A stretch of DNA of 64,000 nucleotides from Candidatus Altimarinota bacterium (GCA_020631075.1 JAHDHX010000007.1:3192-67191); one strand, 5' to 3'. Counted from the stretch's first letter, positions 8,452-32,363 are shown. Translations and numbers: made by a program. Notes: generated by a model from the sequence alone, not told the origin.

Positions 8452-8646
8452 TAGGGAGTGTTCACAAAATGGTTTGAGAAGAAAAAAGAGAGATTTTTGA
8501 GCGAAAAATGAGCGCGTATTTGCAGCCTTGATGGATCAAGGCAAAAATGCGCAACCATTTTGCAGCCAAAAAGATTCTTTTTTCACTCAAATCACTCCTT
8601 ATATTTCAGGATCAACCTGTTTTTTCCAATTTGTGAACACTCCCTA
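8452..8646. mobile_element. MITE-like element, family A (TA-flanked, 15-17 bp perfect terminal inverted repeats)
   Basis: TA-GGGAGTGTTCACAAA at 8452-8468 pairs with TTTGTGAACACTCCC-TA at 8630-8646. The ~195-bp element is non-coding and contains an internal palindrome, CCTTGATGGATCAAGG. A second, internally deleted copy lies at 50298-50367. Confidence 0.65.
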
Positions 8647-13286: not shown

Positions 13287-13931
13287 TTACAGGGGTGCCT
13301 CCCCCCGCCACCACACCACCGTCACCGCCTGCCCCGAGTCCAGCAGCTGGTGGGCGGGCGTGTGGCCAGTGGCCTGCAGCTGGGCCCATATGTCGGCTTT
13401 GCTCGGCCCGATCAGCAGCAGCACCACCTGCCCACACCGCTCGGTGAGGTACGTCATCGTCACACTCAGTCGCTCCGCCACGGCGAAGGCCGACGTGCAC
13501 GCCGTCGTCACCCAGCCATTGCGGCTAGGGGTTTCGCTGTGCCCTGACTCATCCGCAAACAAACTCCCAATGTGCCCGTCAGGCCCCACCCCCAGCACCG
13601 CCAGAGGGCAGTGGGCGGGCAGCTGCTGGCTATACGCCTCAGCGGCGGCCAGGCGGTCTGTCACCGCGGGGGGCACCGCGGGCCCGTGCACGGTGGCGGT
13701 GGGGGCTAGTGCCTGCACCTGTCGGTGGTTGCTGTGCTCGTGGTCGCGTGGCACCCAGCGTTCATCGGCCAGCCACACGGCTCGCCGTGGCCCGACCCAC
13801 TGCACCGCGCGGGCGGCGCTGCCCCCACTCAGCAGCAAGTCCCCCCCCGTGCTGACGGCGGCCAGCGTCGTCAGTTGGCTGCGGGCCTCGGCCAGTGTGT
13901 CACAGTCTACAAATTCTACAAAGCGTGCCAT
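13287..13931 (-). CDS. pgl: 6-phosphogluconolactonase
   Basis: LLLSGGSAARAV and LGVGPDGHIGSLFAD are signatures of the Pgl/NagB superfamily. The start was chosen at MARFVEF (overlaps the zwf stop by 16 nt). Operon context is with zwf and gnd. Confidence 0.75.
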   Translation of the reverse strand: MARFVEFVDCDTLAEARSQLTTLAAVSTGGDLLLSGGSAARAVQWVGPRRAVWLADERWVPRDHEHSNHRQVQALAPTATVHGPAVPPAVTDRLAAAEAYSQQLPAHCPLAVLGVGPDGHIGSLFADESGHSETPSRNGWVTTACTSAFAVAERLSVTMTYLTERCGQVVLLLIGPSKADIWAQLQATGHTPAHQLLDSGQAVTVVWWRGEAPL

Positions 13932-15328: not shown

Positions 15329-15388
15329 GAGGGTGTGGGGGTGTAAGGATGAAAGGGAAAGATTTTGAGGTAAAGGCGAGATGGAGGC

Positions 15389-16795: not shown

Positions 16796-16807
16796 GAGGA
16801 AGTTTTT

Positions 16808-17470
16808 TTACTGATACAAGTTTTGACACGCATCACAGTCGGCCCAGTCCGCATTAAATTTCGCCAGCCCGCTGTCAGTCTGTGGGTGGGCGAGCATTTG
16901 GTCCAGCAACCGCGGCGGGAGGGTCGCGATGTCCGCCCCCACCCGCAGACACCCCGTAATGTGCCCCATGTGCCGCAGCGAAGCCGCCAGCACGAGGGTC
17001 GACAGCCCATACTCACGGAAAGTCTGAACGATGTCCGCCACCAGTGTCAGTCCCTCACCCCCGATGTCATCTACCCGCCCCACAAAGGGGCTCACCAGCG
17101 TCGCCCCCGCTTTCGCCGCCAGCAGGGCCTGCGTCACGCTAAACACCAGCGTCACATTGGTTTTGACCCCCTCCGCACTCAGTTGCTTCACCGCCTGCAG
17201 CCCCGCCGCCGTCATGGGTATTTTCGCATAAATGTTCGGGTGCCAGGCGGCTACAGTGCGGGCTTGCTCCACCATGGTGTCGACGTCTTCCGCCACCACC
17301 TCCACGCTGATCGGCCCGTCTACCACTTGGGTTATCTCCGTAATGGCCGCCTTGGGGTCAGTGCCTTCCTTGGCCATCAGTGACGGGTTGGTCGTCACCC
17401 CATCGACTATCCCCCACGACGCATATTGCTTGATGTCCGTTACGTTGGCTGTGTCGAGAAATATCTGCAT
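16808..17470 (-). CDS. tal: transaldolase / fructose-6-phosphate aldolase family (short type 3B)
   Basis: MQIFLDTANVTDIKQYASWGIVDGVTTNPSL.. is the canonical N-terminus of short transaldolases. The upstream ORF extension to 17593 was rejected. Confidence 0.85.
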   Translation of the reverse strand: MQIFLDTANVTDIKQYASWGIVDGVTTNPSLMAKEGTDPKAAITEITQVVDGPISVEVVAEDVDTMVEQARTVAAWHPNIYAKIPMTAAGLQAVKQLSAEGVKTNVTLVFSVTQALLAAKAGATLVSPFVGRVDDIGGEGLTLVADIVQTFREYGLSTLVLAASLRHMGHITGCLRVGADIATLPPRLLDQMLAHPQTDSGLAKFNADWADCDACQNLYQ

Positions 17471-17490
17471 CGGGGTGGGGGAGTGAGGAA

Positions 17491-17518
17491 AGTACAGGAG
17501 AGTACAGGCTAGTACAGG
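17491..17518. promoter_or_regulatory. three direct AGTACAGG repeats at an exact 10-bp period upstream of the tal-gnd-zwf-pgl operon
   Basis: The sequence is AGTACAGGag AGTACAGGct AGTACAGG (17491-98, 17501-08, 17511-18), 21-48 nt upstream of the tal ATG. One-helical-turn spacing is typical of direct-repeat regulator sites. Confidence 0.35.
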
Positions 17519-17687
17519 CACGTCTGAAGTCCGAGGACAAGCACCTGAAAAAGGTGTGTGTGTGCCTACCGTCGTAAGCCCATCATACATCATTGTACGC
17601 TTCCGCTTCCTCCGCTGACAACCCCATGCTGTAGGCTAGATCACACTTACAGTGTTTTGGAGGGCCTCCCCATTCAACCTCACTCGC

Positions 17688-18335
17688 TCAGCCTGCAGCC
17701 TCAGACACATCTGTTTCATAGCTCGCCGCACTCCGTGCCTCACGCTCCTCCAGCACCCCCAGCACTGGCCCCAGCCCCAGCCCACGCCCCGCCAGCAACA
17801 CCAGCAGATGATACACCAGATCCGCACACTCACCCGCCAGCGCGTCATCATCATCATTTTTCGCGGCTATCACCACCTCCACCCCCTCTTCCCCCACTTT
17901 CTGGGCACAGCGGTCAGTGCCACTGTCCAGCAACTCCGTGGTATAAGACCCCACAGGCCGCTCCACCGCCCGTCGCTCGACCCGTCGCCACAATTGGCCG
18001 ATCTGCCCCACCCCCAGCCCCCCACCGAAGCACGACACCGCCCCCGTGTGGCACGTCGGCCCCGCAGGGGTCACCAGCACCAGCAGCGCGTCCGCGTCAC
18101 AGTCATGTCGCACGGTTTCCAGTTGCAGCGTGTTCCCACTGGTCTCGCCCTTGCGCCACAGGCTCTGGCGACTCCGCGACCAAAACGTCACCCCCCCCGT
18201 GGCCAGCGTGTGCTCCAGTGCTTCACGGTTCATGTACCCCAGCATCAGCACCTGCCGCGTGGCCGCGTCCTGCACTATGGCTGGCACCAGCCCGCCCCCT
18301 TTCTCGAAATCAACTTTGTTCACATCGATCATCAT
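17688..18335 (-). CDS. hisIE: bifunctional phosphoribosyl-AMP cyclohydrolase / phosphoribosyl-ATP pyrophosphatase
   Basis: The HisI block is ..[48 protein letters not shown]... It is followed by a HisE-type helical domain (..[20 protein letters not shown]..). Confidence 0.85.
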
Positions 18336-18354
18336 TTACAGGTTATAGACTAAT

Positions 18355-19101
18355 TTAGACTGGCCGAATAGCAATGCCCTCCGCTGCCAGCGCTGCCTTC
18401 AAGTCAGGGATTTCCACCTCCCCATAGTGAAAGATCGACGCCGCCAGCCCCCCATCCGCTAGGTCCTCCGCAAACACCTCCACAAAGTCCGCCACCGTCC
18501 CCGCTCCCCCCGAAGCGATCAACGGCACGCGACACCGCGGCCGCACCGCGCGGTAAAGCTCCAGATCAAACCCCGCCTTGGTGCCATCCGCCGCGATGGA
18601 AGTCAGCAAGATTTCCCCCGCCCCCGCTGCCTGCACGGCCTCCACCCAGTCAATCACGTCCCAGTCTGTCCGTTCGCGCCCCCCGCGCACATACACCCCA
18701 CCCTCACGCGTGTCGACTGACACCACCACCGCTTGCCGCCCCAGCGCCTCGGCCAGCTCCGTCACCAGCTCTGGCCGCGCCACCGCCGCACTGTTGACAG
18801 CCACCTTGTCGGCCCCCGCGTCCAGCACGGCCTTGGCGTCCGCCACGGTTTTGACCCCCCCACCGATCGTAAAGGGTATGTCGAGCACCTTGCCCACCTC
18901 CGCCGCGAAGTCCGCCACCGTGCCACGGCGCTCGTGCGTCGCCGTAATGTCCAAAAACACCAGCTCGTCCGCCCCCGCGTCCCGATATTGCTGGGCCAGC
19001 TCCACGGCGTCACCCGCGTCCCGCAGGTCGACAAAGTGCGTCCCTTTGACCGTCCGCCCATTTTTAATGTCCAAACAAGGAATGATTCGTTTTCGCAGCA
19101 T
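18355..19101 (-). CDS. hisF: imidazole glycerol phosphate synthase, cyclase subunit
   Basis: RIIPCLDIKNGRTVKG.., ..VFLDITAT.. and the (beta/alpha)8 pattern are present. Length 248 aa. Confidence 0.9.
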   Translation of the reverse strand: MLRKRIIPCLDIKNGRTVKGTHFVDLRDAGDAVELAQQYRDAGADELVFLDITATHERRGTVADFAAEVGKVLDIPFTIGGGVKTVADAKAVLDAGADKVAVNSAAVARPELVTELAEALGRQAVVVSVDTREGGVYVRGGRERTDWDVIDWVEAVQAAGAGEILLTSIAADGTKAGFDLELYRAVRPRCRVPLIASGGAGTVADFVEVFAEDLADGGLAASIFHYGEVEIPDLKAALAAEGIAIRPV

Positions 19102-19129
19102 GAGAGTTATTTTTGAATAAATATTGTGC

Positions 19130-19154
19130 GCAGATTTGCGTTGCAGATTTGCGT
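19130..19154. repeat. tandem 12-mer GCAGATTTGCGT x2 in the hisA-hisF intergenic gap
   Basis: GCAGATTTGCGT occurs at 19130-19141 and 19143-19154, separated by one T. It lies inside the 66-nt gap between the GNAT::hisA stop and the hisF start. Confidence 0.5.
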
Positions 19155-19167
19155 AATGGAGTACACC

Positions 19168-20400
19168 TCAAGCAGGAGGCGTGTAATAATTTTGAAGCTC
19201 CCTCAGTGGCAACCGCCCTTCATAGTACGCCTTGCCAAATATGACCCCCGCCAACCCAGCCGCCTGCGTCGCGCGGATGTCTCCCACGCTCGCCACCCCC
19301 CCAGAGGCGATCACCCGCAACTGCGAGAACTTTCCTTGCAGCGCGCGCAGACTAGGCAGGTTGGGCCCTTGCAGCATCCCGTCCGTGGCAATGTCGGTCG
19401 AGATCACCGTCCGCAACCCCCACGGCACAAACCGCTCTATCAGCTCGTCCACCATCACCCCCGAGTCAGACTCCCACCCGTGGGTGGCCACGCGGCCGTC
19501 TCGGGCATCGACGCCCAGCACCACTTGCGCTGGGCCCAGCTCCTGCAGGGCTTGCTCGACCACGGTGGGGTTTTGCACCGCCGCCGACCCATATATCACT
19601 CGGCTCACCCCCAAGGCCAGCGTCTCGCGCGCGTCCGCCAGCGTGCGGATCCCCCCCCCCAGCTCCACGGGCACCGTCGCGTGCTCGACTATCTGCTCTA
19701 TCACCGCCGTGTTCACCCGCTTGCCGGCCTTGGCCCCGTCCAAGTCCACCACGTGTATCCCCCCCGCAAAGGTACTTAACTCCGCCACCAGCGTCGGCAC
19801 CGCCGTGGTGTATGTCGACACTTGGGCGTAATCCCCCTGCCGCAGCCGCACCACGTCCCCCCCCAGCAGGTCTATCGCGGGCCACAGCGCAAACCGCTCA
19901 TACTCATACAAGTATTCATCCAGCATTTCACCGTTTTTTTCCACCGCGTTTGTCAGGCGCTTCACCTGCCGAAAGCCCGCCTTCGCTAGCGCCTTTTGTG
20001 ACGCAATGTTCCCCAAAAACGTTTGCGCCGTGATCTTCCGCAGCCCCATCCTCTGGGTGATGTACTGCGTCAGTCCTTTGATGAGCTCTGTCCCCAGCCC
20101 TTGCCGTTGGGCACTCTGGTGCACCCAGTACCCTATATCCGCCGACCCCGCCCCGTGGTCAACCTCCCGAATGCTCGCCCGCCCGATGATAACCCCCCCC
20201 CGCCGCACCGCGAAGCCGTAGGGCTTATGCGGGCGACGGTCATGCGCCGCGTACGTTTCGCCTATTTCAGACGGCGGGTCCCACAGCATATACTGCGTCA
20301 GCTCCCAGTTGTCTTTGATCAGAGGAAACACCTCCGCAATGTCCTCCCGCACGAAGGTCCGAAACGTCAGGTCGCCGTACGCAAAGGTAATGATCTTCAT
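19168..20400 (-). CDS. hisA: fusion protein: N-terminal GNAT (RimJ/RimL-like) acetyltransferase + HisA (ProFAR isomerase)
   Basis: Residues 1 to about 170 carry GNAT motif A (..VHQSAQRQGLGTELIKGL..). From ..LWPAIDLLGGDVVRLRQGDYAQ.. onward the sequence is canonical HisA. It is one uninterrupted 410-codon frame. The start overlaps the hisH stop (ATGA). Confidence 0.85.
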   Translation of the reverse strand: MKIITFAYGDLTFRTFVREDIAEVFPLIKDNWELTQYMLWDPPSEIGETYAAHDRRPHKPYGFAVRRGGVIIGRASIREVDHGAGSADIGYWVHQSAQRQGLGTELIKGLTQYITQRMGLRKITAQTFLGNIASQKALAKAGFRQVKRLTNAVEKNGEMLDEYLYEYERFALWPAIDLLGGDVVRLRQGDYAQVSTYTTAVPTLVAELSTFAGGIHVVDLDGAKAGKRVNTAVIEQIVEHATVPVELGGGIRTLADARETLALGVSRVIYGSAAVQNPTVVEQALQELGPAQVVLGVDARDGRVATHGWESDSGVMVDELIERFVPWGLRTVISTDIATDGMLQGPNLPSLRALQGKFSQLRVIASGGVASVGDIRATQAAGLAGVIFGKAYYEGRLPLRELQNYYTPPA

Positions 20401-20951
20401 GCTTGGAGGAATTGTGAAAGGAGTTCTGCCCCCACAGGCCCACTTTTTTCAGGGTGAAACTGCATCCCCCAGCGGTGGCCTGCCCGCACGATGGCACTAA
20501 AGGTCTGCCCGTTGTACGTCCCCGTGGCGACCGTGGCAGGCCCCACAGGGCAGCCATAGCTATGCACGAAGTACACCATCTCACCGGTGCTCAGCGTGTT
20601 CCACCCCATGTGGGGCACAGGCTGCGGCCCAGGGGGCAGCTCCGTCACCCGCCCAGGCAGCAAGCCCAGACACGGCGTGTCCCCCTCGGTCGAATGTTCA
20701 TACAGCAGCTGCATCCCGAGGCATATCCCCAGCAATGGCTGCTCACACTCCCGCACCCACTGGGTCAGGCCCCGCTCCGCCAGCCCCCGCATGGCACTGG
20801 CGGCCGCCCCCACCCCGGGCAAGATCACCCGCTCCGCCGCCCCCAGCACCGCTGGGTCCGCCGTCAGGGTGTGGGGTTCCCCCAGTCGCGTCAGCGCGTT
20901 GCTGACACTGCGGGTGTTGCCCGCGCCGTAATCAATGATGGCCGTTCTCAT
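20397..20951 (-). CDS. hisH: imidazole glycerol phosphate synthase, glutamine amidotransferase subunit
   Basis: AIIDYGAGNTRSV.., the catalytic Cys block GICLGMQLL and ..FHPEKS.. are present. Confidence 0.9.
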   Translation of the reverse strand: MRTAIIDYGAGNTRSVSNALTRLGEPHTLTADPAVLGAAERVILPGVGAAASAMRGLAERGLTQWVRECEQPLLGICLGMQLLYEHSTEGDTPCLGLLPGRVTELPPGPQPVPHMGWNTLSTGEMVYFVHSYGCPVGPATVATGTYNGQTFSAIVRAGHRWGMQFHPEKSGPVGAELLSQFLQA

Positions 20952-20973
20952 GTTTCTACCAGTGATAAATACT

Positions 20974-22221
20974 CTACAAATTTTCGATCAACCGATCGAT
21001 AGCGTCAGGCACGCTGCCCCTTGCCCCCAGTTCCACCGCCCGCCCCAGCCCCAGCAGCTGCACCGCAGGGCTATACTCCCCCCCGATCAGGTTTTTGACC
21101 AAAAACGGACAACAGAAAAGCCCCTTCCGTATCACTTCCCGCCAATCAGACGGCAGCATCCCCTCCGCCCGCAGGTGCGCGACCAGCGGCTGCCACACCT
21201 CCCGAAATTTCTGCTCCAGCACTCCCCAGCGCGCAGGGGCCACGTCCGTCAGGGTTTGGTTATGCGTGACTTCTATACGTTCATCCGTCAGCGTGTATGT
21301 CAGCTCCAGCGACAGCTCCGACGGCTCATACAACCACCACGGGTGGGCGAGGGTGTCGTGGAAGGTCGTCTTGATAAACGCCAGCAAGGGCGGGATTTCC
21401 GTCCCCGCAAAGGCAGGGTCAAAGAGGAGAAACTCCCCCTCAGGGGTCAAGAATTTATTACCGTTGTGCTCGTCCCCATGGGCCGTTATGGCTCCATACG
21501 GCGCGAGGTACGCAGGCGTAATGATCTCCTGCGCCCGCGTAATGATCTCCGTCAACGTTTCAGTGTACTCCACTCCGTTCACCACCCAGCGCTTGGCGGC
21601 CAGCTCCGCCCAGGTCAGCCGCTCACCACGGGGCAGGGTCACCGTCGCCCCGAGGTAATACTCCTGCAGTCGGCACCCTTCCCCGTGCAGTCGGTGGGTG
21701 AAGAGCTGCCACAGCCCCTCGTCGCGCATGACGGTGGGGTCAGCGGGGTGCAGGGTGGCCTTGGCCATAGCGACACACTCCGCGTTGAGGTTCGACTCCG
21801 CTCGGTTGAGCGTCGGCAATATCCGCACATTCCCTTGGTCGACCGTGCGCCAGACGTCATACGCCGTCGGCCAGTCCACTCGGGGGTAGACCAGCACCTG
21901 CTGCCCGGGCACACTCGACTGCGCCAAGGGTTCGAGCACCCGCAGCCCCGCCCGCTGCAGCACCCCCGCACGGTAATACTCCGAAACCGACTCCGTCTCT
22001 CCGTCCTCCGCGTGAAACTTAAAAAACAGCCCCTCCCCTTGGTCAGTCTCCAGCACCCCATTGACGGAGTTCAAACTCACCGCACTCTCATTGACCCGCA
22101 TGGCCACTATCCCCAGCCGCGGAAAGAGTTTTTGCAAAAACGGCAACAGCCGCGCCCGTTGCTCCGCTGGGGGCAGCCCCACCACCGCCGCCAGGTCTAT
22201 CCCTCGGTCGTCACTCATCAT
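20974..22221 (-). CDS. kinase-fold (APH/choline-kinase-like phosphotransferase) protein embedded in the his operon
   Basis: HGDEHNGNKF ... LFDPAF resembles the HxDxxxxN catalytic loop plus the metal-binding D of the APH/ChoK-like fold. The rest of the 415-aa protein was not recognised. Its stop overlaps... its start overlaps the upstream IMPase gene stop (22218-22221). Confidence 0.5.
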   Translation of the reverse strand: MMSDDRGIDLAAVVGLPPAEQRARLLPFLQKLFPRLGIVAMRVNESAVSLNSVNGVLETDQGEGLFFKFHAEDGETESVSEYYRAGVLQRAGLRVLEPLAQSSVPGQQVLVYPRVDWPTAYDVWRTVDQGNVRILPTLNRAESNLNAECVAMAKATLHPADPTVMRDEGLWQLFTHRLHGEGCRLQEYYLGATVTLPRGERLTWAELAAKRWVVNGVEYTETLTEIITRAQEIITPAYLAPYGAITAHGDEHNGNKFLTPEGEFLLFDPAFAGTEIPPLLAFIKTTFHDTLAHPWWLYEPSELSLELTYTLTDERIEVTHNQTLTDVAPARWGVLEQKFREVWQPLVAHLRAEGMLPSDWREVIRKGLFCCPFLVKNLIGGEYSPAVQLLGLGRAVELGARGSVPDAIDRLIENL

Positions 22222-23096
22222 TGGTCTTTTGTGTCAAAATACCCCCGAAAATCCGCCGCCACCCGCTCCAAGCGGTGCTCAGGCCGCAGCTGCCCCCGCC
22301 CGACTTTCACCAGCGCCTCAGCGTCCGCCACCGTGGCGGCCACCACCACCAGCATCACGTCCCTCCCCGCAAACCCCAGCCGCACCACCCAGCCTTGGGC
22401 CGTCAGCGCCCCCAGATACACCAGATCATACAGCGGATACGTCCGCTTCCCTTCCCCCGAAGCCACCCACAGCAACGCGTCCGCCCGCCCATACGTCAGG
22501 GCCGCGCCCTCACACACCGCCGCTGGCACCACCACCGTGGTCACAGGGCGCTGGGTCAGCGCGCGCACGGCCGCCACAGCCGCGGGTTCCCCCCCCGCCC
22601 CATAGTCACAATAAAGCAACTGCACGGTCTCTCGCTCCGCCAACGGCGTGGCCGCGGGCCGCGGGGCAGGCCCCCAGTTGGTGTACATTTCCCCCCCCGC
22701 CGTCACGTTCCAGCTCGCCCGCCAGCTGCCGTCACGGTTCAGCCCCCCGACCATCGTGCCCCACTGGTCTTCCCCCCGCGCGAAGGCCGACGTACCGTCG
22801 ATCGGGTCCACCAGCAGGTACCAGTCTGGGTCAGCAGGCTGCTCAGCCCACTCGGGCCCCAGCTCTTCTTCTGCCCATATCGCGTACTGCCCCGCCGCGC
22901 CGCTCGCCGCCCAGTGCTGCAAGATCATCTGCTGCAGGGCAGTGTCTGCCGCCGTCACCAGCTCGGTCGCATCCTTGTGCTGGGCGGTCAAGGTACCCGC
23001 CTGCAGGGCAGTCTGCACTTGCCGTGCGTGGGCCAGCCACGTTTCAGCGGGCAGGGTGCGCCACGTCTCAGCGTCAGGGTAGGGGAGTGAGGTCAT
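22218..23096 (-). CDS. hisN: inositol-monophosphatase-family protein, probable histidinol-phosphate phosphatase (HisN type)
   Basis: IMPase motifs are present: WAEEELG and LLVDPIDGTSAF. Its location between hisD and hisH supports a HisN role by context, as in Actinobacteria. Confidence 0.65.
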   Translation of the reverse strand: MTSLPYPDAETWRTLPAETWLAHARQVQTALQAGTLTAQHKDATELVTAADTALQQMILQHWAASGAAGQYAIWAEEELGPEWAEQPADPDWYLLVDPIDGTSAFARGEDQWGTMVGGLNRDGSWRASWNVTAGGEMYTNWGPAPRPAATPLAERETVQLLYCDYGAGGEPAAVAAVRALTQRPVTTVVVPAAVCEGAALTYGRADALLWVASGEGKRTYPLYDLVYLGALTAQGWVVRLGFAGRDVMLVVVAATVADAEALVKVGRGQLRPEHRLERVAADFRGYFDTKDQ

Positions 23097-23132
23097 GTGT
23101 ATTTACTTTTTAGCAGCACGAAGTGTTGAGCG

Positions 23133-24437
23133 TTAATCCCGCAACCGAATATCCACCGCCTCTTTGTGCGCGTCGAGCCCCTCCACGTCACTGATCGTTC
23201 GGACAATGGGCGCCAGCGCCGCCAGTCCTTCTTTCGTCAGCACCTGAAACTCATTGTTTTTGATGAAAGTCTCAGGCCCCACAGGCGAGCTAAATTTCAC
23301 CGCGCGGCTCGTCGGCAGGCTGTGGTTGGTGCCACTGGCATAGTCACCCACTGGCACAGGGGCATACGGCCCGACGAAAATCGACCCCGCATTACGGATT
23401 CGCCCCGCTACCGCTTCGGCGTCCGCAACCTGGATGTGCAAGTGTTCCGTCGCGTAATCATTAGCAAAGTCCACCATCTCGTCGACCGACTCCACAATGA
23501 TGATCCCTTGGTACCCATTCTCGAGCGCTGGTTTGATGTACTGCCCATAGCGGGCACGCGCAGGGGCTTGGCGTGCGACCTCTTCATTGATCGCCTCCGC
23601 CAGCTCGCGTGACGTCACCACCACGGGGAAGCACGAATCAGGCCCGTGCTCACACCGCGCTAAGATATCCGCCGCCACCCACGCAGGGTTGGCCGTCTCG
23701 TCCGCCAGCCCCAGCCCCTCTGACGGCCCCGCGATCATGTCTATCCCCACCTGGCCAAAGACCTGCATCTTGGCCGCCTGCACCCACGGGCTCCCTGGGC
23801 CAGAGATTTTCTCAACGGGTTCTATGCTCTCCGTTCCGTACGCCAGCGCCGCGATCGCCGCCACCCCCCCCACACGATAAATCTCATCCGCCCCCGCTAT
23901 GTCCGCCGCCGTAATGATCTCAGGGTAATAATTCGTCGGCGGGAAGCACACCACTATCCGCGGCACCCGCGCCGCCTTGGCCGCCACGGTAAGGATCTGT
24001 GACACCGTGGGCAGTGGCGCCTTCCCCGCGGGCACATACAGCCCAGCACTGTCCATCGGGTTCTTTTTCACCCCAGTGCGCACCCCGGGCACATATTCTA
24101 CTTCCCACGTCCCCTCAGCATAGATCTTCTCAGCGTGTGTCTGGTGAAAGTTCTGCGAGATCTCTATCTGTCGCCGCTGGGTGGCCAGCACCTCTGGGTC
24201 AACGTCTTTATACGCCTGCTTGATCTCCGCAGGCGTCACCCGCAGTTGCTCCACGGTGAAGTTCGGATCATCAAACTTCCGAATATAATCAACGATCGCC
24301 GCGTCCCCCCGCGCACGGATGTCTTCGATTATCCGCTTCACGTCAGGCGCGATCGCGTCTATGTCCGCCTGCGACCGCCGAAACAGCTTCGCCCGCAGCG
24401 CCCCCATCAGTTCCGCATTGGTGTAAATAGGTATCAT
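23133..24437 (-). CDS. hisD: histidinol dehydrogenase
   Basis: 434 aa with ..IAGPSEGLGLADE.. and conserved C-terminal blocks (..GDYASGTNHSLPT..). Confidence 0.9.
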   Translation of the reverse strand: MIPIYTNAELMGALRAKLFRRSQADIDAIAPDVKRIIEDIRARGDAAIVDYIRKFDDPNFTVEQLRVTPAEIKQAYKDVDPEVLATQRRQIEISQNFHQTHAEKIYAEGTWEVEYVPGVRTGVKKNPMDSAGLYVPAGKAPLPTVSQILTVAAKAARVPRIVVCFPPTNYYPEIITAADIAGADEIYRVGGVAAIAALAYGTESIEPVEKISGPGSPWVQAAKMQVFGQVGIDMIAGPSEGLGLADETANPAWVAADILARCEHGPDSCFPVVVTSRELAEAINEEVARQAPARARYGQYIKPALENGYQGIIIVESVDEMVDFANDYATEHLHIQVADAEAVAGRIRNAGSIFVGPYAPVPVGDYASGTNHSLPTSRAVKFSSPVGPETFIKNNEFQVLTKEGLAALAPIVRTISDVEGLDAHKEAVDIRLRD

Positions 24438-24503
24438 GTCAGTTGAGGAGTGAAAAGAATTTAAGAAGAAATAAAGTGCAAACTAAAATGGAAAGTGAGT
24501 GTT

Positions 24504-25598
24504 TTACGAGCCGCCATGCCCCTGCGCAGCCAGCTCCGCCCGCAGCGCCCCCATCACCGTTGGCAGGTCGTCGGGGTGGGGCACCGCCGACAGGCACAGG
24601 TGCGGGTCACGCTGGGCAAATATCCCCATCGGCTTGAGAGCCACCCCCCGCCGCAGCAGCCCCCGCCGATACTCCTCCGCCAGCATCGGCACCCGAAACA
24701 GACAAAAACTCGTCAGCGTCGGCCGCACCTGCACATCAGGCAGGGCCGTCAGCGCCGTCACATATTCCTCTTTCGCTTGTTGATACTCTCGCACAAACGC
24801 TGCCGCCTCTTGCGGGTGGCGCAGCACAGCTTCGGCTGCGGCCAGCGCCACTTGGTTCACCGCAAAAACCTGACTACTCCCCTCCACCTTTTGCAGCAGG
24901 GCAATCATGGCTTCGTCCCCATACACCAGCCCCACCCGCAGCCCCGCCAGCCCATACCCCTTACTAAACCCACGGAAGACCACCAGATTGGGGTACTTCC
25001 CTTCCGCCACCAGTGGCAGCACCGTTTCCCCCCCCAGCTCGAAATACGTCTCGTCCACCACCCACATTGTCCGCGGGTGCTCGGCCACCCACTGGGCGAT
25101 TTCAGTCGGGGTGACCAGCTGGTTGCCGGTCGGGTTGTTGGGCTGGGCCAGCCACACGACTTTGGGTTGGTCGGCCAGGGCCGCGGCCCAGTCAGCGCGG
25201 GGCAGGGCCCAGTTTTCGTCCAGCGCGACGGTCCGCACCGTCGCCCCCAGCAGGTGCGTCGCCGCCGCGTAGCACGGAAAAGTCGGCCCAGGCACCAGCA
25301 CCGTGTCCCCCTCTTCGAGGTACGTCTTGGCCACCAGCTCTATCAGTCCATCCACCCCGTTCCCCACATACACTTGGCCATAGGTCACTCCGTCACGCGC
25401 CGCCACCAGTCGCCGCAGGGCGGATTTTTGCGCGTCAGGGTAACGGTTCATTTTCCCCAGTGCAGCCGTCGCCGCCACGCGCGCAGGGCCAAACACATAA
25501 GGATTCTCACCAAATTGCAACCGCACCACCCCCTCGGGGTACTCCCCCCAGCTGAGGGTGGGCATATTCCGTACCGCTGACCGCGCCAGTGACTCCAT
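24504..25598 (-). CDS. hisC: histidinol-phosphate aminotransferase
   Basis: Class II aminotransferase with PLP-lysine block FRGFSKGYGLAGLRVG and NPNNPTGN. Confidence 0.85.
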   Translation of the reverse strand: MESLARSAVRNMPTLSWGEYPEGVVRLQFGENPYVFGPARVAATAALGKMNRYPDAQKSALRRLVAARDGVTYGQVYVGNGVDGLIELVAKTYLEEGDTVLVPGPTFPCYAAATHLLGATVRTVALDENWALPRADWAAALADQPKVVWLAQPNNPTGNQLVTPTEIAQWVAEHPRTMWVVDETYFELGGETVLPLVAEGKYPNLVVFRGFSKGYGLAGLRVGLVYGDEAMIALLQKVEGSSQVFAVNQVALAAAEAVLRHPQEAAAFVREYQQAKEEYVTALTALPDVQVRPTLTSFCLFRVPMLAEEYRRGLLRRGVALKPMGIFAQRDPHLCLSAVPHPDDLPTVMGALRAELAAQGHGGS

Positions 25599-25632
25599 TG
25601 TGCACTTTTTTTACTCAATTATAATTTTCCCC

Positions 25633-26481
25633 TCACTCGACTATCTGCTCTATCGGCAACACAAGGATCCCCTCCGCCCCCGCCGCCTTCAGCGCCTTGA
25701 TCGTCTCCCAAAACTTCTCCGTCCGCACCACCGTGGCGAGGCTCACCCACCCGGGGTTGGCCAGCGCACTGATGGTCGGGTTTTTCAGCCCTGGCAACAG
25801 CTGCTTGATGTCCTCCACCGCGTCCTCGGGCGCATTCATGACGATGTACTTGTTTTGCTTCGCCGCCAGCGTCGACCGCACCCGCAGCAGCAGCTCCCCC
25901 AGCACGGGGCAGTCCCGCTCCGTCAGGCCGTTTTTGGCCACCAGCACCGCTTGGCTCTCCAGCACCGTTTCCAGTTCCACCAGCCCATTCTGCGTCAGGG
26001 TCGACCCCGTACTGACCAAGTCACAGATCGCGTCCGCCATCTGCAGGCTCGGGGCGATTTCTACACTCCCCGACAGCTCCACCACCGTGGCAGTTTTGCC
26101 CACTCGGTTCAGGTACCCCCGCAAGATGTTCGGGAAGCTCGTCGCGATCTTCTTGCCCTCTATTTCCAGTGGCCCAGGCGCCGCCAGACACAGCCGACAC
26201 CGCCCAAACCCTAGCCGCTCCAGCGTCGTCAGCTCGTCTGACGCTTGTTCCAGCAGCGCGTCTTCCCCGCATATCCCCAGGTCAGCCACCCCCTGCGCCA
26301 CCGCCCGCGGGATGTCCTTAGACCGTAAAAATATCAACTCCAACGGAAAGTTCCGACACGGCGCCTTCAGCGCGCGGTTGGCCGAAACAAACCGCAACCC
26401 CGCCCGCCGTAAAAATTCTAACCCCGCGTCCGCCAATCGCCCCGATTTCTGTACCGCCAGCGTCAGTGTCTTGTTGGTCAT
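25633..26481 (-). CDS. hisG: ATP phosphoribosyltransferase (long form)
   Basis: LTLAVQKSGRLADAGLEFL.., ..DLVSTGSTL.. and a C-terminal regulatory domain are present. Length 282 aa. Confidence 0.9.
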   Translation of the reverse strand: MTNKTLTLAVQKSGRLADAGLEFLRRAGLRFVSANRALKAPCRNFPLELIFLRSKDIPRAVAQGVADLGICGEDALLEQASDELTTLERLGFGRCRLCLAAPGPLEIEGKKIATSFPNILRGYLNRVGKTATVVELSGSVEIAPSLQMADAICDLVSTGSTLTQNGLVELETVLESQAVLVAKNGLTERDCPVLGELLLRVRSTLAAKQNKYIVMNAPEDAVEDIKQLLPGLKNPTISALANPGWVSLATVVRTEKFWETIKALKAAGAEGILVLPIEQIVE

Positions 26482-26894: not shown

Positions 26895-27823
26895 AAAACA
26901 AAAAAGCCAAATTATTTCCCCCTTTTTTCAAAAACCTCCCGACATCCCACTCCCTTTTCCCCATTAATCAGCCACGAAAAAACACCAGCAAATGCGAAGC
27001 CAGCGAGCCTTCCGACTAGCAGGAGGACAAACCACTACGACAGCATTCAAGAGTGACTGTCTGTCTGCTGCAGGTCTCTGATTTCATCGAGGAGCAGGGT
27101 GGAAGTCATCAAATGAACCAAGAAGAGGAGCGGTGAGAGAGCCAGTCGGGAACGGTGATCGACCCACGAACAGCTTACCCAGAAACGAAAGAGCCCAAGC
27201 GAATGCGTAAGGTTGCGTAGATGGAGCGAAGCGGGATCAAGCCCACTGAAGCATTCAAGAGTGTCTGTCTACTGCAGACATCCGAGCGAGTCGCTCCGCC
27301 TGTGATAATGTAAGTCTTGCGAGGAAAGAGGAGCGGTGAGCGGAGCAGTAGTGAGCGACAGCGACCCACGCGCAGCTCACCCAGCGACGAGTGAGCCCCC
27401 AAAGTGTCCCAGCATGGTTCGCTGCGCGAGTCCACCAAAGATAACAGCGAATGCGTCGCCAGCGTGCCGTCCGACCAACGGGAGGACAAACCGCGGCGAT
27501 AGCATTCAAGATGCCTGTCTGTCTGCTGCAGCCCTCCGAGGTGATCGCGTCACATGGCTCATGGCATAGCGGTCGCGGAGGAAAGAGGAGCGATGAGCGA
27601 CCTACGGCGAAATCACCCAGCGACGAAGCATCAGGGAGTTATAATGATGATCTGCACACAAGTTGAGGAAGTATTGAAGCGAATGCGTCGCCAGCGTGCC
27701 GTCCGACCAACGGGAGGACAAACCGCGGCGATAGCATTCAAGATGCCTGTCTGTCTGCTGCAGCCCTCCGAGGTGATCGCGTCACATGGCTCACTCCCTA
27801 GCGATCGCCGAGGAAAGGTGAGT

Positions 27824-27883
27824 GATGAGGGAGTAGCGCGCATTTGGGGCGACTAAGCCCCAAAAAGCCGCAGCGGACTCATC
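27824..27883 (+). repeat. Z3-type nested hairpin, copy A
   Basis: The outer stem is GATGAG (27824-29) / CTCATC (27878-83). The inner stem is TTTGGGGC (27843-50) / GCCCCAAA (27857-64). Confidence 0.7.
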
Positions 27884-28253
27884 CAACGAACCACGGTTCG
27901 CTGAACCATAGATTTTTTGGTGGACTTTTTGGCCCCCTGCTTCAGGGCAATTTTCGAGTCAAATTATAACAAATTTGAAATAAAAAGCCCAAGCGAAAGC
28001 GAAAGGGCGCGCGCACTTCCCCCAGCGACGAAGCGACAATTGCCTGATTTATCAATCATAATAGCAAGAGAAGCGGGGGTCTGGGGGGGCCACCGATGTC
28101 TGAGCCAAGAGTGAGCAGTCGAAGCACCAGTGTGATATTGGCACCAGTTCATTATATCCAATCAATGATGATGGAGGTGTCTCTCTAGCGAACGGTCGGG
28201 TCATGCCCAGTGCCATCAACGTGTCGGCGAGTTTGGCCCCCCCAGCAGTTTTG

Positions 28254-28275
28254 GTACTTTTGCTGCCAAAAGTAC
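28254..28275 (+). repeat. H-module hairpin GTACTTTTG-CTGC-CAAAAGTAC
   Basis: It has a perfect 9-bp stem and a 4-nt loop. The same hairpin with a CTGT loop occurs at 52202-52223 and 63123-63144. Each copy is preceded by CCCAGCGACGACCCCCCAG and followed by AAACACTG..AATGAACCA. Confidence 0.8.
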
Positions 28276-28586
28276 AAACACTGTCTGAGAATGAACCAAC
28301 AAGGGTAACGAGCAAGAACAATAGCGAATGCGAAAGGACGCGCCGATGGAGCGCAGCGGAATCAAGTCCCCTGAAGCATTCAAGATGACAGGTTGTCAGT
28401 CTGCAGACATCCGAAGTGATCGCGTCACCTGGCTCAGAGCCTAGCGATCGCCGAGGAAGAGGAGCGGTGAGAGAGCCAGTCGGGAGCGGTAAGCGACCCA
28501 CGGCGAAATCACCCAGCGACGACCTGAAGCATTCAAGATGGTCGAGTGACTGTTGTCTGACATCCGAGGTGATCGCGCTGTGTGGC

Positions 28587-29414
28587 TCATGGTGTAGCGG
28601 TCGCCGAGGAAAGGCGAGCGATCACAGAGCCAGGTGCGCCGTTTGGGCGCTGCGCCCAAACCAGCTCCGGCGGAGTGATCCAGCGAGCCCTCCACCACGT
28701 CAGCTGCCGCTTCGCATACTTCCGCGTACGCTGCGCTAGCTTCCTGACGGCTTCGGCTTCGGTCAGCAGCCCACGGTCATATGCACGGGCCTCGGCCAGG
28801 CCCACGGTGGTCAGGGCGTTGTGCACGGCGGGGGGGGCGTGCTGGTGGGCGTGTCGGGCTTCCGCCAGCAGCCCTGGCCCCCACATCTGGGCCGCCCGCT
28901 GGTTTATCCGCTCATACAACACCTCCCGCGGCCAGTCTATGCCATACAGACAGCTGGGGTACCTCGGCACATTGGGCAAGCCGTCTTCCCAGCTCCACCC
29001 ACCACAGATCCCATCCACCCACAGCATGGTGCCCCCACACAGCAGCACCCGCTTGTCGGCGGCATGGGCCGCGTCTATCACCCCATACGCATACTCCGCA
29101 AACCGCTTCGCGTCCCACTTTTCGTGCAGGTCAGCAATGCTCAGGCCATAGTGGGGCACCCCCCGCATTTCCGCCGCTGATATTTGCGCCGTGGCGATGG
29201 GCATCCCGCGATATATCTGCCGACTATCGACCGACACCACCACTGCGTCACCCAGCGCCAGCGCTACTTCCACGGCCCAGTCGCTCTTGCCACTGGCCGT
29301 CGGCCCGACGATCGCGCACAGCCCCCGCGGGTGGTCAGCATACCACCGCACTATTTCGGCGGTGGCACGCGCCCGCGGGTCATTCACGTCATTCTTATTC
29401 GCCAGTGCAGTCAT
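28587..29414 (-). CDS. miaA: tRNA dimethylallyltransferase
   Basis: It has the P-loop IVGPTASGKSDWAVEVA and ..RQIYRGMPIATA.., ..TRKYAKRQLTWWR... The last ~33 codons (28587-28687) are read from repeat unit U6, so the native C-terminus is probably replaced. Confidence 0.85.
   Translation of the reverse strand: MTALANKNDVNDPRARATAEIVRWYADHPRGLCAIVGPTASGKSDWAVEVALALGDAVVVSVDSRQIYRGMPIATAQISAAEMRGVPHYGLSIADLHEKWDAKRFAEYAYGVIDAAHAADKRVLLCGGTMLWVDGICGGWSWEDGLPNVPRYPSCLYGIDWPREVLYERINQRAAQMWGPGLLAEARHAHQHAPPAVHNALTTVGLAEARAYDRGLLTEAEAVRKLAQRTRKYAKRQLTWWRARWITPPELVWAQRPNGAPGSVIARLSSATATP
28620..28680 (+). repeat. Z3-type nested hairpin, copy B
   Basis: The outer stem is GATCAC (28620-25) / GTGATC (28675-80). 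The inner stem is GTTTGGGCG (28641-49) / CGCCCAAAC (28653-61). Copy C lies at 58258-58316: outer GATCAC/GTGATC, inner CTTTGGGGG/CCCCCAAAG. Confidence 0.7.
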
Positions 29415-29437: not shown

Positions 29438-30121
29438 ATGCTGTCTGTCAACGTCGTCGAACGCACCCTCCGCCTCCGGATCAACGATCGGGTCGGCACA
29501 GGGTTCGTCTACGACCACGACGGTCGGCAATACCTCCTGACGGCGCGGCACATCTGGGGTGAGTCACCGGGCCTGGGCTACATTGAGGTCTATCGCAACG
29601 CCCAGTGGGACCGCCTCGCAGCGGAGTCCCTCGGCCACTCGGGCGACATCCTCGTCTTGTCGGTCAATGACCGTCTCACCACCCGCGCGGCCGTGCCACC
29701 GGTGCACCGCGTGGGCATGGGGCAAGACGTCTACATTCTCGGCTTCCCCCTCAACCTCAAGTCCCAAGCCCACCACGCGGGCCACACCGTGCCCATCCCG
29801 TTCGTGAAGAAATCACTGCTCTCCGCCGCGCTCGAAACCCCCCCCAGCGGCCAGGTCCTCTACCTCGACGCTATCTTGGCGGGGGGTTTCAGCGGCGGGC
29901 CGGTGCTGGCCTACACACCGTCGGCGCCCGCCCCGCAGCGCTGGGCACTGCTGGGGCTGGTCTCGGGCTACATTTCCGAGCACCACCGCGGCACCGTCCG
30001 CACCCGCGACGGCGAATACTCCGTCCAGAGCCCCCGCAACACGGGCATCACCGTTGGGTGGTCACTGGCGCACGCCGTGCGGGTCATCCACCAGCGCCCT
30101 GAGGGGTTTGAGTTGGGGTGA
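29438..30121 (+). CDS. trypsin-like (S1/PA clan) serine peptidase
   Basis: From MLSVNVVERT.., the catalytic-triad candidates are LLTARHIW (His), DILVLSV (Asp) and GGFSGGPVL (Ser). The 219-codon N-terminal extension in the ORF track (antisense to miaA) was rejected. Confidence 0.7.
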   Translation: MLSVNVVERTLRLRINDRVGTGFVYDHDGRQYLLTARHIWGESPGLGYIEVYRNAQWDRLAAESLGHSGDILVLSVNDRLTTRAAVPPVHRVGMGQDVYILGFPLNLKSQAHHAGHTVPIPFVKKSLLSAALETPPSGQVLYLDAILAGGFSGGPVLAYTPSAPAPQRWALLGLVSGYISEHHRGTVRTRDGEYSVQSPRNTGITVGWSLAHAVRVIHQRPEGFELG

Positions 30122-30134
30122 CTGATAAATAAAA

Positions 30135-30164
30135 TTGAATTATATTGCACTAATGCTTTATAAT
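30135..30164 (+). promoter_or_regulatory. putative promoter of the 704-aa island gene
   Basis: TTGAAT-18 nt-TATAAT is present. The -10 element ends 6 nt before the ATG at 30171, which implies a leaderless or very short-leader mRNA. Confidence 0.45.
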
Positions 30165-30170
30165 TAATTT

Positions 30171-32285
30171 ATGGAAAAAGAGAGTAATGAAACCGAGAGT
30201 GGGCTGTTTTATTGTGAAGTGGAACTCAAACCAATTCCACCAAACATTTTAAGTAGAATACAAAAGAAATTTTTGAAATACTCGATTATTGATGGAAATA
30301 ACTTGAGTTATTCAACGTCATTTGCAGACGAAGATTATTATGATTTGTATAAATATTTTAAATCTCACGGACTGAGCGCTGTATTAACAGAAGAGCAAAA
30401 AAGCAAAATTACTAAAATTGAAAAGATACCTTTGAAGCAAATTGAATGGAAGAAACAATTTTTATCAAAAAAAGGTGAATGGTGGATAGAAAAAAATGGC
30501 ACAATTTATTGGGGAATAGACTCAGGCCTAAATTCAGCTTTATACAGTGCCATAAGTAGAAAAAGCATTGAAGAAGTTTTGAATTTAAACTTGTTTGAAG
30601 GTCAGATTTTAGTTCAATCTACGGTTACAAAAATTAAGAAATTCACAGAAGATTTATTATCAATTGATGAGTTAAAAATAGAAAAAAAGAGGAGGAAAAA
30701 TAAAGAAGGAAGTTCGAATGATCTAATGACAAAAAAAGGTGATTACTGGATTGAATTTGGAGGGAAAGTAATTATTTCTATTCCTTCCTCGGATACAGCT
30801 TTGTATCTGTTTCAAAATAGAAATAAATTATCAAAGATTATCCCAAATATTTGGAGAAATAAGACTATTCTAGTAGTTAAGAGAAAAGTGTTTGAGAAAT
30901 TGAAGGAAAATGTAAATCGATCTGAAATATATTTTGTGGGAAAAGATCTTGATGGTAATTTAATTGAAAATGGAAATCCTAAATCTGGTGTAGGTTTAAT
31001 CAAAATTCAGGAAATAATTGAAAAGAGAGATATTAAATTGACTCCAAGTCAGATTGAAAAATTAATAGGTATCTCTAGCGAATTACAAGATCTTTTTGAG
31101 TTATCCGAATTTCAAGAAAATTGGAGTACTGGAAAAATTAAATCCCACAATCCAGCACTATATAAACAGTCAAAAACATGGGCAAAAAAGCTCAAAACAG
31201 ATTTCACCGATTTTCTTTCTATTTTTGCTGGAATCGAAGACAGCAATTCAAAGTATTTGACCAGTGAGATGAAAGCTGAAAAAGACAGTAAAGAAAAAAT
31301 GCAAAGGATTACATCTGACTTAATCGAATGGTTGAAAATAAAACAGGTAGGAGAATGGTATATAAATGACATTCCAAATACTTCAGTGCGTTCCAAAATT
31401 CAAATTTTATCTAAAAACATAGCTGACAAATCATTATTTCTAGAAAGATTTCTCATCAAATACGCAGAAGAGTTATCAGAGAATGAGAACAAAAAAAATC
31501 AATTAAAAAGTGAAATCAAAGCATTACTCTCTTTGAATCCTGTGAAAAGCCTAAGTAAGGAGATACCGAAGAATAAAGAGATGTTAAAAGAAAGAACGAT
31601 TAAAGAAATCATATCAGTTTCTGGGTCTTCTTGGTCAATAAATACACTTTCTAAAGCCTCACAAACAATTCTTAAAAGATACCTAAAAACGTCAAACCAA
31701 GAGTTTAAGAAAATAGCAGGAGCAAAAAATTCTATAAATGAAAAAATTCTTTTTGAGGATTGGCTTAATGATAGCTTTGAGATACTGAAAACTTATAAAC
31801 CATACGGATACTCAAATTACATGATTAAGAAAAAATTTAGTGAATATACAATGAATCTAAAAGTAAAAAAACCCTCGGATATCGAGAAAGTAGATAGATC
31901 ACTTTATAAAGCAATTTGCAGGAACATTAGTCGTAAAGGGAAATCATTGTGGCTCTATTTAATATTAAACTCTTTACCAGAAGTGTTTGTAAATAAAAAG
32001 CGCTACAAGTTTACTTTAGAAAATGAAATTATTTATAGAGGTGAGGGAAGTGCCAAAAAACAAGGCCATAACGATCCAGAGCTATTTATAAATAAATTTA
32101 AAAAAAGTAGTGCACAAACGCCCGAAGAAATAATGATTGCTAATGAAAGTTTGGATTTACTGCGAAATGGCCTTTCTGTAGTAAGAAATAACCCTCAATA
32201 CGCCGATTTTGTTGCTCGATACGAAGAAGAGGGAGAAATAACCCCAGAACTGGTTTCGATATTGAAGGAAGTGTTAAAGATTTGA
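30171..32285 (+). CDS. hypothetical 704-aa Lys/Glu/Asn/Ile-rich protein encoded on a strongly AT-rich island
   Basis: Uninterrupted 704-codon ORF in sequence whose composition differs sharply from both flanks. It contains internally repeated segments (KKGEWWIEKNGTIYWGIDSGLNSALYSAI / KKGDYWIEFGGKVIISIPSSDTALYLF / VGEWYINDIPNTSVRSKIQIL / SGSSWSINTLSKASQTIL). No known domain was recognised. Confidence 0.75.
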   Translation: MEKESNETESGLFYCEVELKPIPPNILSRIQKKFLKYSIIDGNNLSYSTSFADEDYYDLYKYFKSHGLSAVLTEEQKSKITKIEKIPLKQIEWKKQFLSKKGEWWIEKNGTIYWGIDSGLNSALYSAISRKSIEEVLNLNLFEGQILVQSTVTKIKKFTEDLLSIDELKIEKKRRKNKEGSSNDLMTKKGDYWIEFGGKVIISIPSSDTALYLFQNRNKLSKIIPNIWRNKTILVVKRKVFEKLKENVNRSEIYFVGKDLDGNLIENGNPKSGVGLIKIQEIIEKRDIKLTPSQIEKLIGISSELQDLFELSEFQENWSTGKIKSHNPALYKQSKTWAKKLKTDFTDFLSIFAGIEDSNSKYLTSEMKAEKDSKEKMQRITSDLIEWLKIKQVGEWYINDIPNTSVRSKIQILSKNIADKSLFLERFLIKYAEELSENENKKNQLKSEIKALLSLNPVKSLSKEIPKNKEMLKERTIKEIISVSGSSWSINTLSKASQTILKRYLKTSNQEFKKIAGAKNSINEKILFEDWLNDSFEILKTYKPYGYSNYMIKKKFSEYTMNLKVKKPSDIEKVDRSLYKAICRNISRKGKSLWLYLILNSLPEVFVNKKRYKFTLENEIIYRGEGSAKKQGHNDPELFINKFKKSSAQTPEEIMIANESLDLLRNGLSVVRNNPQYADFVARYEEEGEITPELVSILKEVLKI

Positions 32286-32289
32286 TTTT

Positions 32290-32363
32290 TGGCATCCCTC
32301 CGTGGGATCGAACCACGAGTTTCCCCTTAGGAGGGGGACGTTTTTCCATTAAACTAGAGGGAC
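32290..32363 (-). tRNA. tRNA-Arg (anticodon CCT), CCA encoded
   Basis: The minus strand reads GTCCCTC-TA-GTTT-AATGGAA-AAAC-G-TCCCC-CTCCTAA-GGGGA-AACT-CGTGG-TTCGATC-CCACG-GAGGGAT-G-CCA. This gives a full cloverleaf with a canonical T-arm and anticodon loop CT-CCT-AA. Pair 1-72 is G-U. Confidence 0.85.

Follow-up and report, generated by a model that had tools for sequence, protein, structure and literature searches.

BIMEs of E. coli alternate in orientation, REPs can stabilize upstream mRNA, and in REP-RAYT systems the gene for the cognate RAYT, a Y1/HUH transposase, is usually flanked by repeats. As far as we are aware, CPR bacteria, whose genomes are very small and tightly packed, are not known for repeat families. 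The REPIN is an inverted doublet of a 20–40-nt palindrome, and compensatory change has been documented in this hairpin-forming mobile DNA as well (PMC3116915), which means that "selection on structure" alone does not amount to a functional RNA. BOX elements of Streptococcus pneumoniae are composed of boxA-boxB(n)-boxC modules, and the Rickettsia palindromic and Correia/ERIC elements act as RNA processing or stability signals when they are transcribed (PMC3049150).

The stretch of DNA analyzed here (64,000 nt, referred to as the window) is a piece of a bacterial chromosome, as judged from its Pfam matches (his operon, zwf/gnd/tal, clpB, topA, trmD, greA, miaA, and pgm). Its TrmD and GreA are at most 67–73% identical to anything else in a collection of 5.8 billion proteins, and the nearest named relatives are Candidatus Peribacteria and Gracilibacteria. 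Four intergenic regions (together ∼3.1 kb, about 5% of the window) are filled with arrays of modules arranged head to tail and all in the same (+) orientation. The modules of this repeat family fall into the classes W, X (X1/X2), Z1/Z2, V, and Z3. Array R1 (26975-28692, +) consists of two sub-arrays: R1a (26975-27895, +) extends from the start of a trpR-like gene (26874, −) to an AT-rich spacer and contains W-X-Z units with the first Z3 copy, Z3-A, as the last module; R1b (27985-28692, +) contains a unique stretch followed by V, W2, X1, Z1, W-tail, X1, and Z3-B, and abuts and overlaps the 3′ end of miaA. Array R2 (52040-52495, +; W-tail, X2, Z2, V, W1, X2, Z1, Z3 remnant) reaches from the start of a fasciclin-domain gene to the trmD stop codon. 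Array R3 (57870-58328, +; W1 remnant within the 3′ end of a PALP ORF, W-tail, X2, Z1, W2, X1, Z3-C) is flanked by convergent genes, and array R4 (62890-63484, +; W2, X2, Z1, V, X1, Z1, W-tail, X2, Z2, half Z2), which is without Z3, overlaps the tail of the pgm ORF. The order of the modules is unlike in all five arrays and sub-arrays. Neighboring units are up to 93–94% identical, which indicates recent local duplication, and both truncated and deletion forms are present.

Z3 follows directly after X1 in all three copies and is also the last module of its array or sub-array in all three. The corresponding X1 modules are located at 27767-27814 (+; TCC-GA-GGTGATCGC-(20-nt loop)-GCGATCGCC-GA-GGA), 28563-28610 (+), and 58201-58248 (+), upstream of Z3-A, Z3-B, and Z3-C, respectively. 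A fourth array, R2, also has Z3 sequence at its end, in the form of a 3′ remnant (ACAGCGTAGTGAT-ttAGCtGCGAC; 52470-52495, +) that is identical at 13 of 13 core positions and whose flanks align to Z3-C. Z3-A alone does not abut a gene; just past it lies a small hairpin with a T-run (27895-27917, +), the sole terminator-like site beside any Z3, and then the AT-rich spacer. Almost all module junctions (Z tail, W head, V head) carry the heptamer CCAGCGA, of which the window has 33 occurrences (29 of them on the + strand), versus about 12 expected; it may serve as a motif for recombination or processing.

The cores of the three Z3 copies (27824-27883, 28620-28680, and 58258-58316) were confirmed by direct reading, in position as well as in sequence, as they had been given in the sequence-only reading. 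The full modules are longer and comprise 27817-27892 (Z3-A, +, closing R1a), 28613-28689 (Z3-B, +, closing R1b), and 58251-58325 (Z3-C, +, closing R3). The copies are 68–76% identical to each other and have a common fold, an interrupted, nested hairpin of ∼76 nt. Its outer stem (6 bp) is GATGAG/CTCATC in Z3-A (27824-29/27878-83) and GATCAC/GTGATC in Z3-B (28620-25/28675-80), and that of Z3-C (58258-63/58311-16) is identical to that of Z3-B. As had been claimed, both sides of this stem are swapped together; the number of paired changes is two (positions 4 and 6), not three. On its 3′ side, the stem carries an invariant CA bulge. Inward of it follow a purine-rich 3×3 loop, a middle helix that is variable, and a GC-rich inner hairpin of 8–9 bp (TTTGGGGC-gactaa-GCCCCAAA in Z3-A, GTTTGGGCG-ctg-CGCCCAAAC in Z3-B, and CTTTGGGGG-ccg-CCCCCAAAG in Z3-C). 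The hairpin also extends beyond the outer stem, by a 2-bp stem (GT/AC or GC/GC) and an outermost 3-bp stem (GGT/ACC in Z3-A, GGC/GCC in Z3-B, and GAG/CTC in Z3-C), both of which covary (three additional covarying pairs) and between which an invariant GA lies opposite GA. Z3-A, for example, reads GGT-GA-GT-GATGAG ... TTTGGGGC-gactaa-GCCCCAAA ... CTCATC-CA-AC-GA-ACC, and the skeleton invariant among the copies is NNN-GA-GY-stem...stem-CA-RC-GA-NNN.

RNAalifold placed 24 pairs in the alignment of the three Z3 copies, with eight double-sided changes, one change from G-C to U-G, and no broken pair except for one loop-closing cell; these three are the only full copies in the window, and all of them are on one metagenome-assembled contig. 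Paired cells amounted to 98.6%, versus 84.6 ± 3.1% when the 3′ partners were shuffled, and the observed values on five measures were matched by none of 500 shuffles. When the partners were slid by one to three columns, only 29–41% of the cells were paired, with at most one double change. All 33 pairs of the outer skeleton in the three copies are Watson–Crick, despite the fact that the stems differ. Variable columns made up 18 of 48 paired and 15 of 33 unpaired columns; thus, stem columns vary about like unpaired ones, which indicates that the sequence of Z3 is free to drift and its pairing is not. Folded as RNA, the + strands of Z3-A, Z3-B, and Z3-C reach −36.1, −41.9, and −35.8 kcal/mol, with z-scores of −5.1, −3.2, and −3.9, respectively, relative to dinucleotide shuffles; DNA parameters gave the same fold with z-scores of −2.7 to −3.4. 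Hence, every copy folds better than its shuffles irrespective of the parameter set, the outcome of a check that had been proposed together with the claim of selection on structure, not on sequence or frame. This claim is borne out in that the pairing is kept and the stem columns drift like loop columns, and it is considered very likely that the structure is under constraint. That the three copies are unrelated sequences aligned by chance is excluded by the invariant skeleton, the X1 module upstream, and the array-terminal position, which establish their homology. With a covariance model derived from them, the three Z3 copies scored 94.6 (Z3-A), 95.7 (Z3-B), and 101.2 (Z3-C) bits (E about 1e-25), and anything else in the 64-kb window scored no more than 27 bits; no further full Z3 was found within the window.

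The architecture of Z3 recurs in the sister modules, each type of which folds independently. X and Z modules have a common skeleton, consisting of a stem, a conserved GA/GA internal loop, and another stem. In their outer skeleton (GA, GC, a 5–7-bp stem ... stem, CA, GC, GA), the nine Z1/Z2 copies match Z3; 89.5% of their cells are paired, and four pairs covary. They are represented by the Z1 copy at 28459-28522 (+), which reads GAG-GA-GC-GGTGA...TCACC-CA-GC-GA-CGA and encloses an inner GG-GA-GC-loop-GC-GA-CC hairpin; the others are located at 27125-27188, 27328-27390, 52123-52185, 52406-52469, 58049-58111, 63043-63106, 63238-63301, and 63383-63445, and a short deletion form at 27585-27625. Every Z1/Z2 copy was recognized by the Z3 covariance model (14–27 bits), and only on the + strand. 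In two Z copies (those starting at 52406 and 63383), GA/GA is substituted by Watson–Crick CA/TG, from which it follows that the GA/GA positions face each other in the helix. The X module (TCC-GA-stem-20-nt loop-stem-GA-GGA) exists in two variants, and its GA/GA and its TCC...GGA ends are kept in 12 of 12 copies. A position-by-position table (the MAFFT alignment is not structure-aware, and its consensus is meaningless) showed that the stems of X1 (GGTGATCGC/GCGATCGCC) and X2 (GCGAGTC/GACTCGT) still pair although both partners are exchanged at four of the seven positions. Among the 132 skeleton pairs of the 12 X copies, read on the + strand, 127 are Watson–Crick (114) or G·T (13, an excess that corresponds to about four independent changes when counted by event), and one is A·C. 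The W module has the outer stem GAATGC/GCATTC and two variants; V is an AT-rich hairpin of 9 bp. Overall, the mismatched GA/GA loops, the CA bulge, and the 3×3 purine loops are invariant or nearly so among 3 Z3, 9 Z1/Z2, and 12 X copies.

GA opposite GA is stabilizing, and its complement, TC opposite TC, is not. The GA/GA loops and the G·T wobbles make structural sense only on the + strand, which argues for a single strand of + polarity as the constrained form. The + strand gave the better fold for 12 of 12 X copies and 9 of 12 Z copies, and the skeleton pairs recovered in minimum-energy folds of whole arrays numbered 37 on the + versus 0 on the − strand for X, 22 versus 0 for Z3, and 36 versus 21 for Z. 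Z3 alone had no energetic strand preference (−36.1/−31.2, −41.9/−42.4, and −35.8/−37.0 kcal/mol for the +/− strands of Z3-A, Z3-B, and Z3-C), also not with DNA parameters, and the minimum free energies of whole arrays were not lower on the + strand and did not discriminate between the strands. The strand evidence therefore leans toward +, but is soft. The multi-stem architecture with its conserved non-Watson–Crick loops looks RNA-like, as far as predicted folds can tell, and RNA is slightly favored over single-stranded DNA as the constrained form.

On its right side, every array reaches a − strand gene at the gene's 3′ end, and five ORFs have 3′ ends that run into repeat sequence. The miaA ORF (−) continues for 33 or so codons beyond its Pfam IPPT domain, which ends at residue 243 of 275 (about position 28686), through antisense Z3-B and into the loop of X1 (28587-28690). 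About 11 codons of the pgm ORF come from the end of array R4 (63449-63484); the last codons and the stop codon of trmD (52482-84, −) lie inside the Z3 remnant (repeat part, 52482-52496); and the stop codon of greA (58324-26, −) overlaps the CTC of the outermost Z3-C stem (58323-25). At the left of R3, a W1 remnant (57865-57902) makes up about the final 12 codons in the ORF for a PLP enzyme (PALP). Repeats appear to have replaced native gene ends. The two gene starts that face arrays have 80–100 nt left free before them. Taken together, ORF tails within arrays, common remnants, and avoided promoters are a signature of selfish, proliferating DNA. A simple promoter scan yielded nothing upstream of arrays R2 to R4. 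Since each of the four arrays adjoins the 3′ end of a gene on the − strand, a reading as 3′-UTR of the − strand is just as compatible with the context.

Exact-pattern scans of 185,579 species genomes (one per bacterial or archaeal species) and of viral contigs gave no match, and distant blastn against plasmids and phages gave none either. Among JGI metagenome contigs, there were 10 exact-pattern matches, all of them bare 19–21-mers without extension and thus attributable to chance. The contigs of the closest relatives (TrmD 67% and GreA 66–70% identical), which have short intergenic regions, contained no related repeat according to blastn or the Z3 model. Rfam 15 reported only tRNA-Arg over the window in gathering mode and noise (E > 1) over the arrays in permissive mode, and a protein search with an ORF from within an array (28416-28739) returned nothing. 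The repeat family is lineage-specific and absent from all other collections searched.

Several further features of the window lie outside the arrays. A textbook intrinsic terminator (AAAGCCCCC-cca-GGGGGCTTT and then TTTTTT; 60788-60820, +) follows the ORF at 60252-60773, indicating that the organism uses hairpin-plus-U-tract terminators; weak Rfam matches to "Phe_leader" and ctRNA at 60788-60820 are just this terminator hairpin. A low-GC island (30000-32363; 30–33% GC versus about 60% elsewhere) consists of one ORF of 704 aa (30171-32285, +) without a Pfam match, which ends beside tRNA-Arg(CCT) (32290-32363, −), and has the appearance of DNA gained by horizontal transfer next to a tRNA gene. 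In a stretch of lower GC, a perfect 16-bp palindrome (GGCACAGCATACGGGC-tata-GCCCGTATGCTGTGCC; 263-298) lies within an ORF (208-1164, +) that matches HTH_38/HTH_23 only and hence may be what is left of an IS30-like transposase. The topoisomerase I ORF (40310-42700, −) has four to five tandem repeats of 18 nt at its 3′ end (40317-40406), and these encode a lysine-rich C-terminal tail. A 29-nt inverted repeat (8444-8472/8626-8654; 90% complementary, with its arms 153 nt apart) just downstream of a ClpB-like gene (8644-11316, −) does not belong to the W/X/Z family. Finally, 13916-26481 (−) is a same-strand block of zwf, gnd, tal, and a complete-looking his operon (hisIE, hisF, hisA, hisH, hisD, hisC, hisG), the hisA ORF of which (19168-20400) has a GNAT acetyltransferase domain at the N terminus; biosynthesis in this block is unusually rich for a CPR genome.

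In the reading put forward here, which is regarded as about evenly balanced between right and wrong, Z3 closes the arrays of a lineage-specific family of modular intergenic repeats that form hairpins in a Peribacteria-like CPR bacterium, is constrained on the + strand, and serves as a 3′ cap. At the DNA level, duplication, deletion, and recombination at short junction motifs (e.g., CCAGCGA and GAGCG) would have spread and reshuffled the arrays, which now occupy non-promoter space at the 3′ ends of genes. Each module conserves its fold and not its sequence, with covarying stems that are interrupted by invariant purine loops (GA/GA) and the CA bulge. The form under constraint would be a single + strand, most likely the array transcript, and in this transcript Z3 is predicted to fold into an extended stem-loop of high stability (−36 to −42 kcal/mol). 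At the border between the array and the stop codon of the convergent gene, Z3 might cap the 3′ end of the array, and its proposed role would be that of a hairpin that protects this end or insulates, and not that of a canonical terminator. The family itself, its mosaic module order, the covariation, the strand asymmetry, the terminal position of Z3, and the absence from the other collections searched are shown by the analysis; transcription of the arrays, a role at the RNA level, and a cap function of Z3 are what we infer from these patterns, and Z3 as a 3′ cap or insulator is proposed tentatively. A further-reaching version, considered rather improbable, is that the arrays are genes for new, long, modular structured RNAs, whose tandem-G·A hairpins might be sites of protein binding or of RNA–RNA docking; transcribed convergently toward housekeeping genes, such RNAs would have Z3 as the 3′-terminal domain that sets their end without a U-tract and shields the neighboring gene from antisense read-through.

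The main rival, which explains the distribution of the family equally well and is itself possible but somewhat unlikely, regards the arrays as selfish, non-autonomous mobile DNA of the REP/REPIN, MITE, or BOX kind, with a transposase or recombinase reading the folded single-stranded DNA; an effect of the RNA, which this does not exclude, would then be a by-product. If only foldable copies are propagated, changes in both arms survive, and such compensatory changes are frequent in REPINs (PMC3116915); BOX elements consist of modules, are found preferentially between convergent genes, and extend ORFs (PMC3049150). The mosaic order, the truncated modules and deletion forms, the recent local duplication (93–94% identity of adjacent units), the restriction to one lineage, arrays that lie flush with or over five gene 3′ ends and leave 80–100 nt before gene starts free, and a Z3 fold that is equally good with DNA parameters are all in accord with this explanation. 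On the other hand, the units are without terminal inverted repeats or target duplications, the modules are direct, on the same strand, and form no inverted doublets, and there is no Y1/HUH transposase, integrase, or reverse transcriptase among the genes of the 64-kb window. Furthermore, the non-palindromic GA/GA loops, the CA bulge, and the nested multi-stem build seem closer to an RNA motif than to a transposase hairpin. The + strand is C-rich and of lagging-type composition, so that exposure as lagging template would be expected for the − strand, not for the better-folding + strand. Templated correction of one arm by the other is known from palindromic DNA, and three copies represent few independent events; the paired changes could therefore have arisen without any selection, through template switching or intrastrand repair that copies the arms of quasi-palindromes, or from three differing master copies. 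However, a mutation that perfects a palindrome would be expected to erase the GA/GA, the CA bulge, and the 3×3 loops, and their persistence in Z3, Z1/Z2, and X counts for structural constraint instead. As, in addition, the covariation extends over four separate helices and to X1 versus X2 and Z1 versus Z2, and G·T wobbles have been left uncorrected, an origin without selection is considered very improbable.

With its GC-rich inner hairpin of 8–9 bp placed right where greA and trmD have their stop codons and where miaA ends, Z3 might also be taken for a Rho-independent, possibly bidirectional terminator of the adjacent convergent genes, and the pneumococcal SPRITE is a repeat that was co-opted as a terminator (PMC3049150). 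Yet the arms, TTTGGGG...CCCCAAA, have the U's 5′ and the A's 3′ in both directions, no T-run follows the inner or the outer stem on either strand, the terminator scan called none of the Z3 copies, and the real terminator of the window (60788-60820) has the opposite arm order and a T7 run. Moreover, the conserved outer architecture of 76 nt would be left unexplained, which makes such a function highly improbable. Even less credible, with a probability close to negligible, is that chance similarity or protein-coding sequence was mistaken for a structure. Several frames are open through single copies (e.g., the tail of the miaA ORF through antisense Z3-B), but none is both open and conserved across the three Z3 copies, the lengths of which differ by 1–2 nt and thereby shift the frames, as the claim of structure instead of frame in the sequence-only reading had implied; the protein search with the array ORF found nothing. 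Chance similarity is at odds with the scores of the three Z3 copies (95–101 bits versus no more than 27 elsewhere) and with the flanking modules common to the copies. If the arrays are transcribed, they would be a compact natural case of structure-preserving evolution within one genome, where paralogue covariation substitutes for phylogeny, and they might indicate a way to end or insulate transcripts between convergent genes independently of a U-tract. If they are selfish DNA, the genomes of streamlined episymbionts would still be open to repeats, even to ones that rewrite C-terminal tails (miaA, pgm, trmD).

CRISPR, attC, and iteron arrays were rejected on the grounds of module lengths, missing spacers or cassettes, and missing core sites; resemblance to hammerhead or box C/D motifs is fragmentary, with Rfam being silent; and a CsrB-like GGA sponge is at variance with GGA motifs in stems and linkers and not in hairpin loops. 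Integron attC sites have R″/L″...L′/R′ cores (RYYYAAC...GTTRRRY), extrahelical bases, an intI gene nearby, and cassette ORFs; here, direct reading of the module ends showed no such cores, the modules are not separated by cassette ORFs, and the genes of the window include no integrase. In a canonical kink-turn, a 3-nt bulge is located directly 5′ of tandem sheared G·A pairs. GA opposite GA between Watson–Crick stems, which occurs three times per unit (X, Z outer, and Z inner), is reminiscent of this tandem-G·A motif, but the loop is a symmetric 2×2 one and the sole bulge, the 2-nt CA, is 2 bp away on the other strand. MITE-like ends are not discernible, in that there is no complementarity between the unit ends (AGCGAATGCG... 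and ...CCAGCGACGA) and no flanking direct duplications were seen when the junctions were read. Like Rickettsia palindromic, Correia, and ERIC elements, the modules are palindromic repeats within or against coding sequence that add peptide tails; unlike the modules, those elements each consist of one MITE-like unit bounded by terminal inverted repeats and not of mixed modules in head-to-tail arrays, and there is no evidence in this window for in-frame insertion inside a gene body.

Likeness extends to REP, REPIN, and BIME sequences, which are also extragenic, hairpin-forming, present in multiple copies as clusters or tandem arrays, and rich in compensatory changes; changes that keep the hairpin are found in Z3 as well. 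In contrast to REPINs and BIMEs, the modules are all direct, strand-asymmetric, 45–80 nt long, and have nested stems. The repeat finder revealed no inverted pairs within the arrays, hits of the Z3 model were confined to the + strand (weak self-palindrome echoes aside), and no RAYT was present among the Pfam-scanned ORFs of the 64-kb window. With BOX elements, which were compared by description, the arrays have in common the variable number and mosaic order of a few module types, the stable stem-loops predicted for the transcript, the enrichment at gene 3′ ends or between convergent genes, the several open frames through which neighboring ORFs gain repeat-encoded tails, and the restriction to a lineage; in kind, these are modules that are variably combined, each fold alone, and lie outside promoters. 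They differ in the unrelated host (CPR, 60% GC), in array lengths of up to 0.9 kb, in the lack of a boxA/boxC-type complementarity closing the whole element (each module being its own hairpin), and in conserved GA/GA internal loops and explicit covariation between variants. Thus, the repeat family belongs in kind with the modular small interspersed repeats (BOX, BIME/REP, and REPIN), yet it is a member of none of those families because it is without inverted doublets, terminal inverted repeats, and an Rfam match. It is a new family, distinguished by its streamlined CPR host, its density, its RNA-like tandem-GA architecture, and its rewriting of gene ends.
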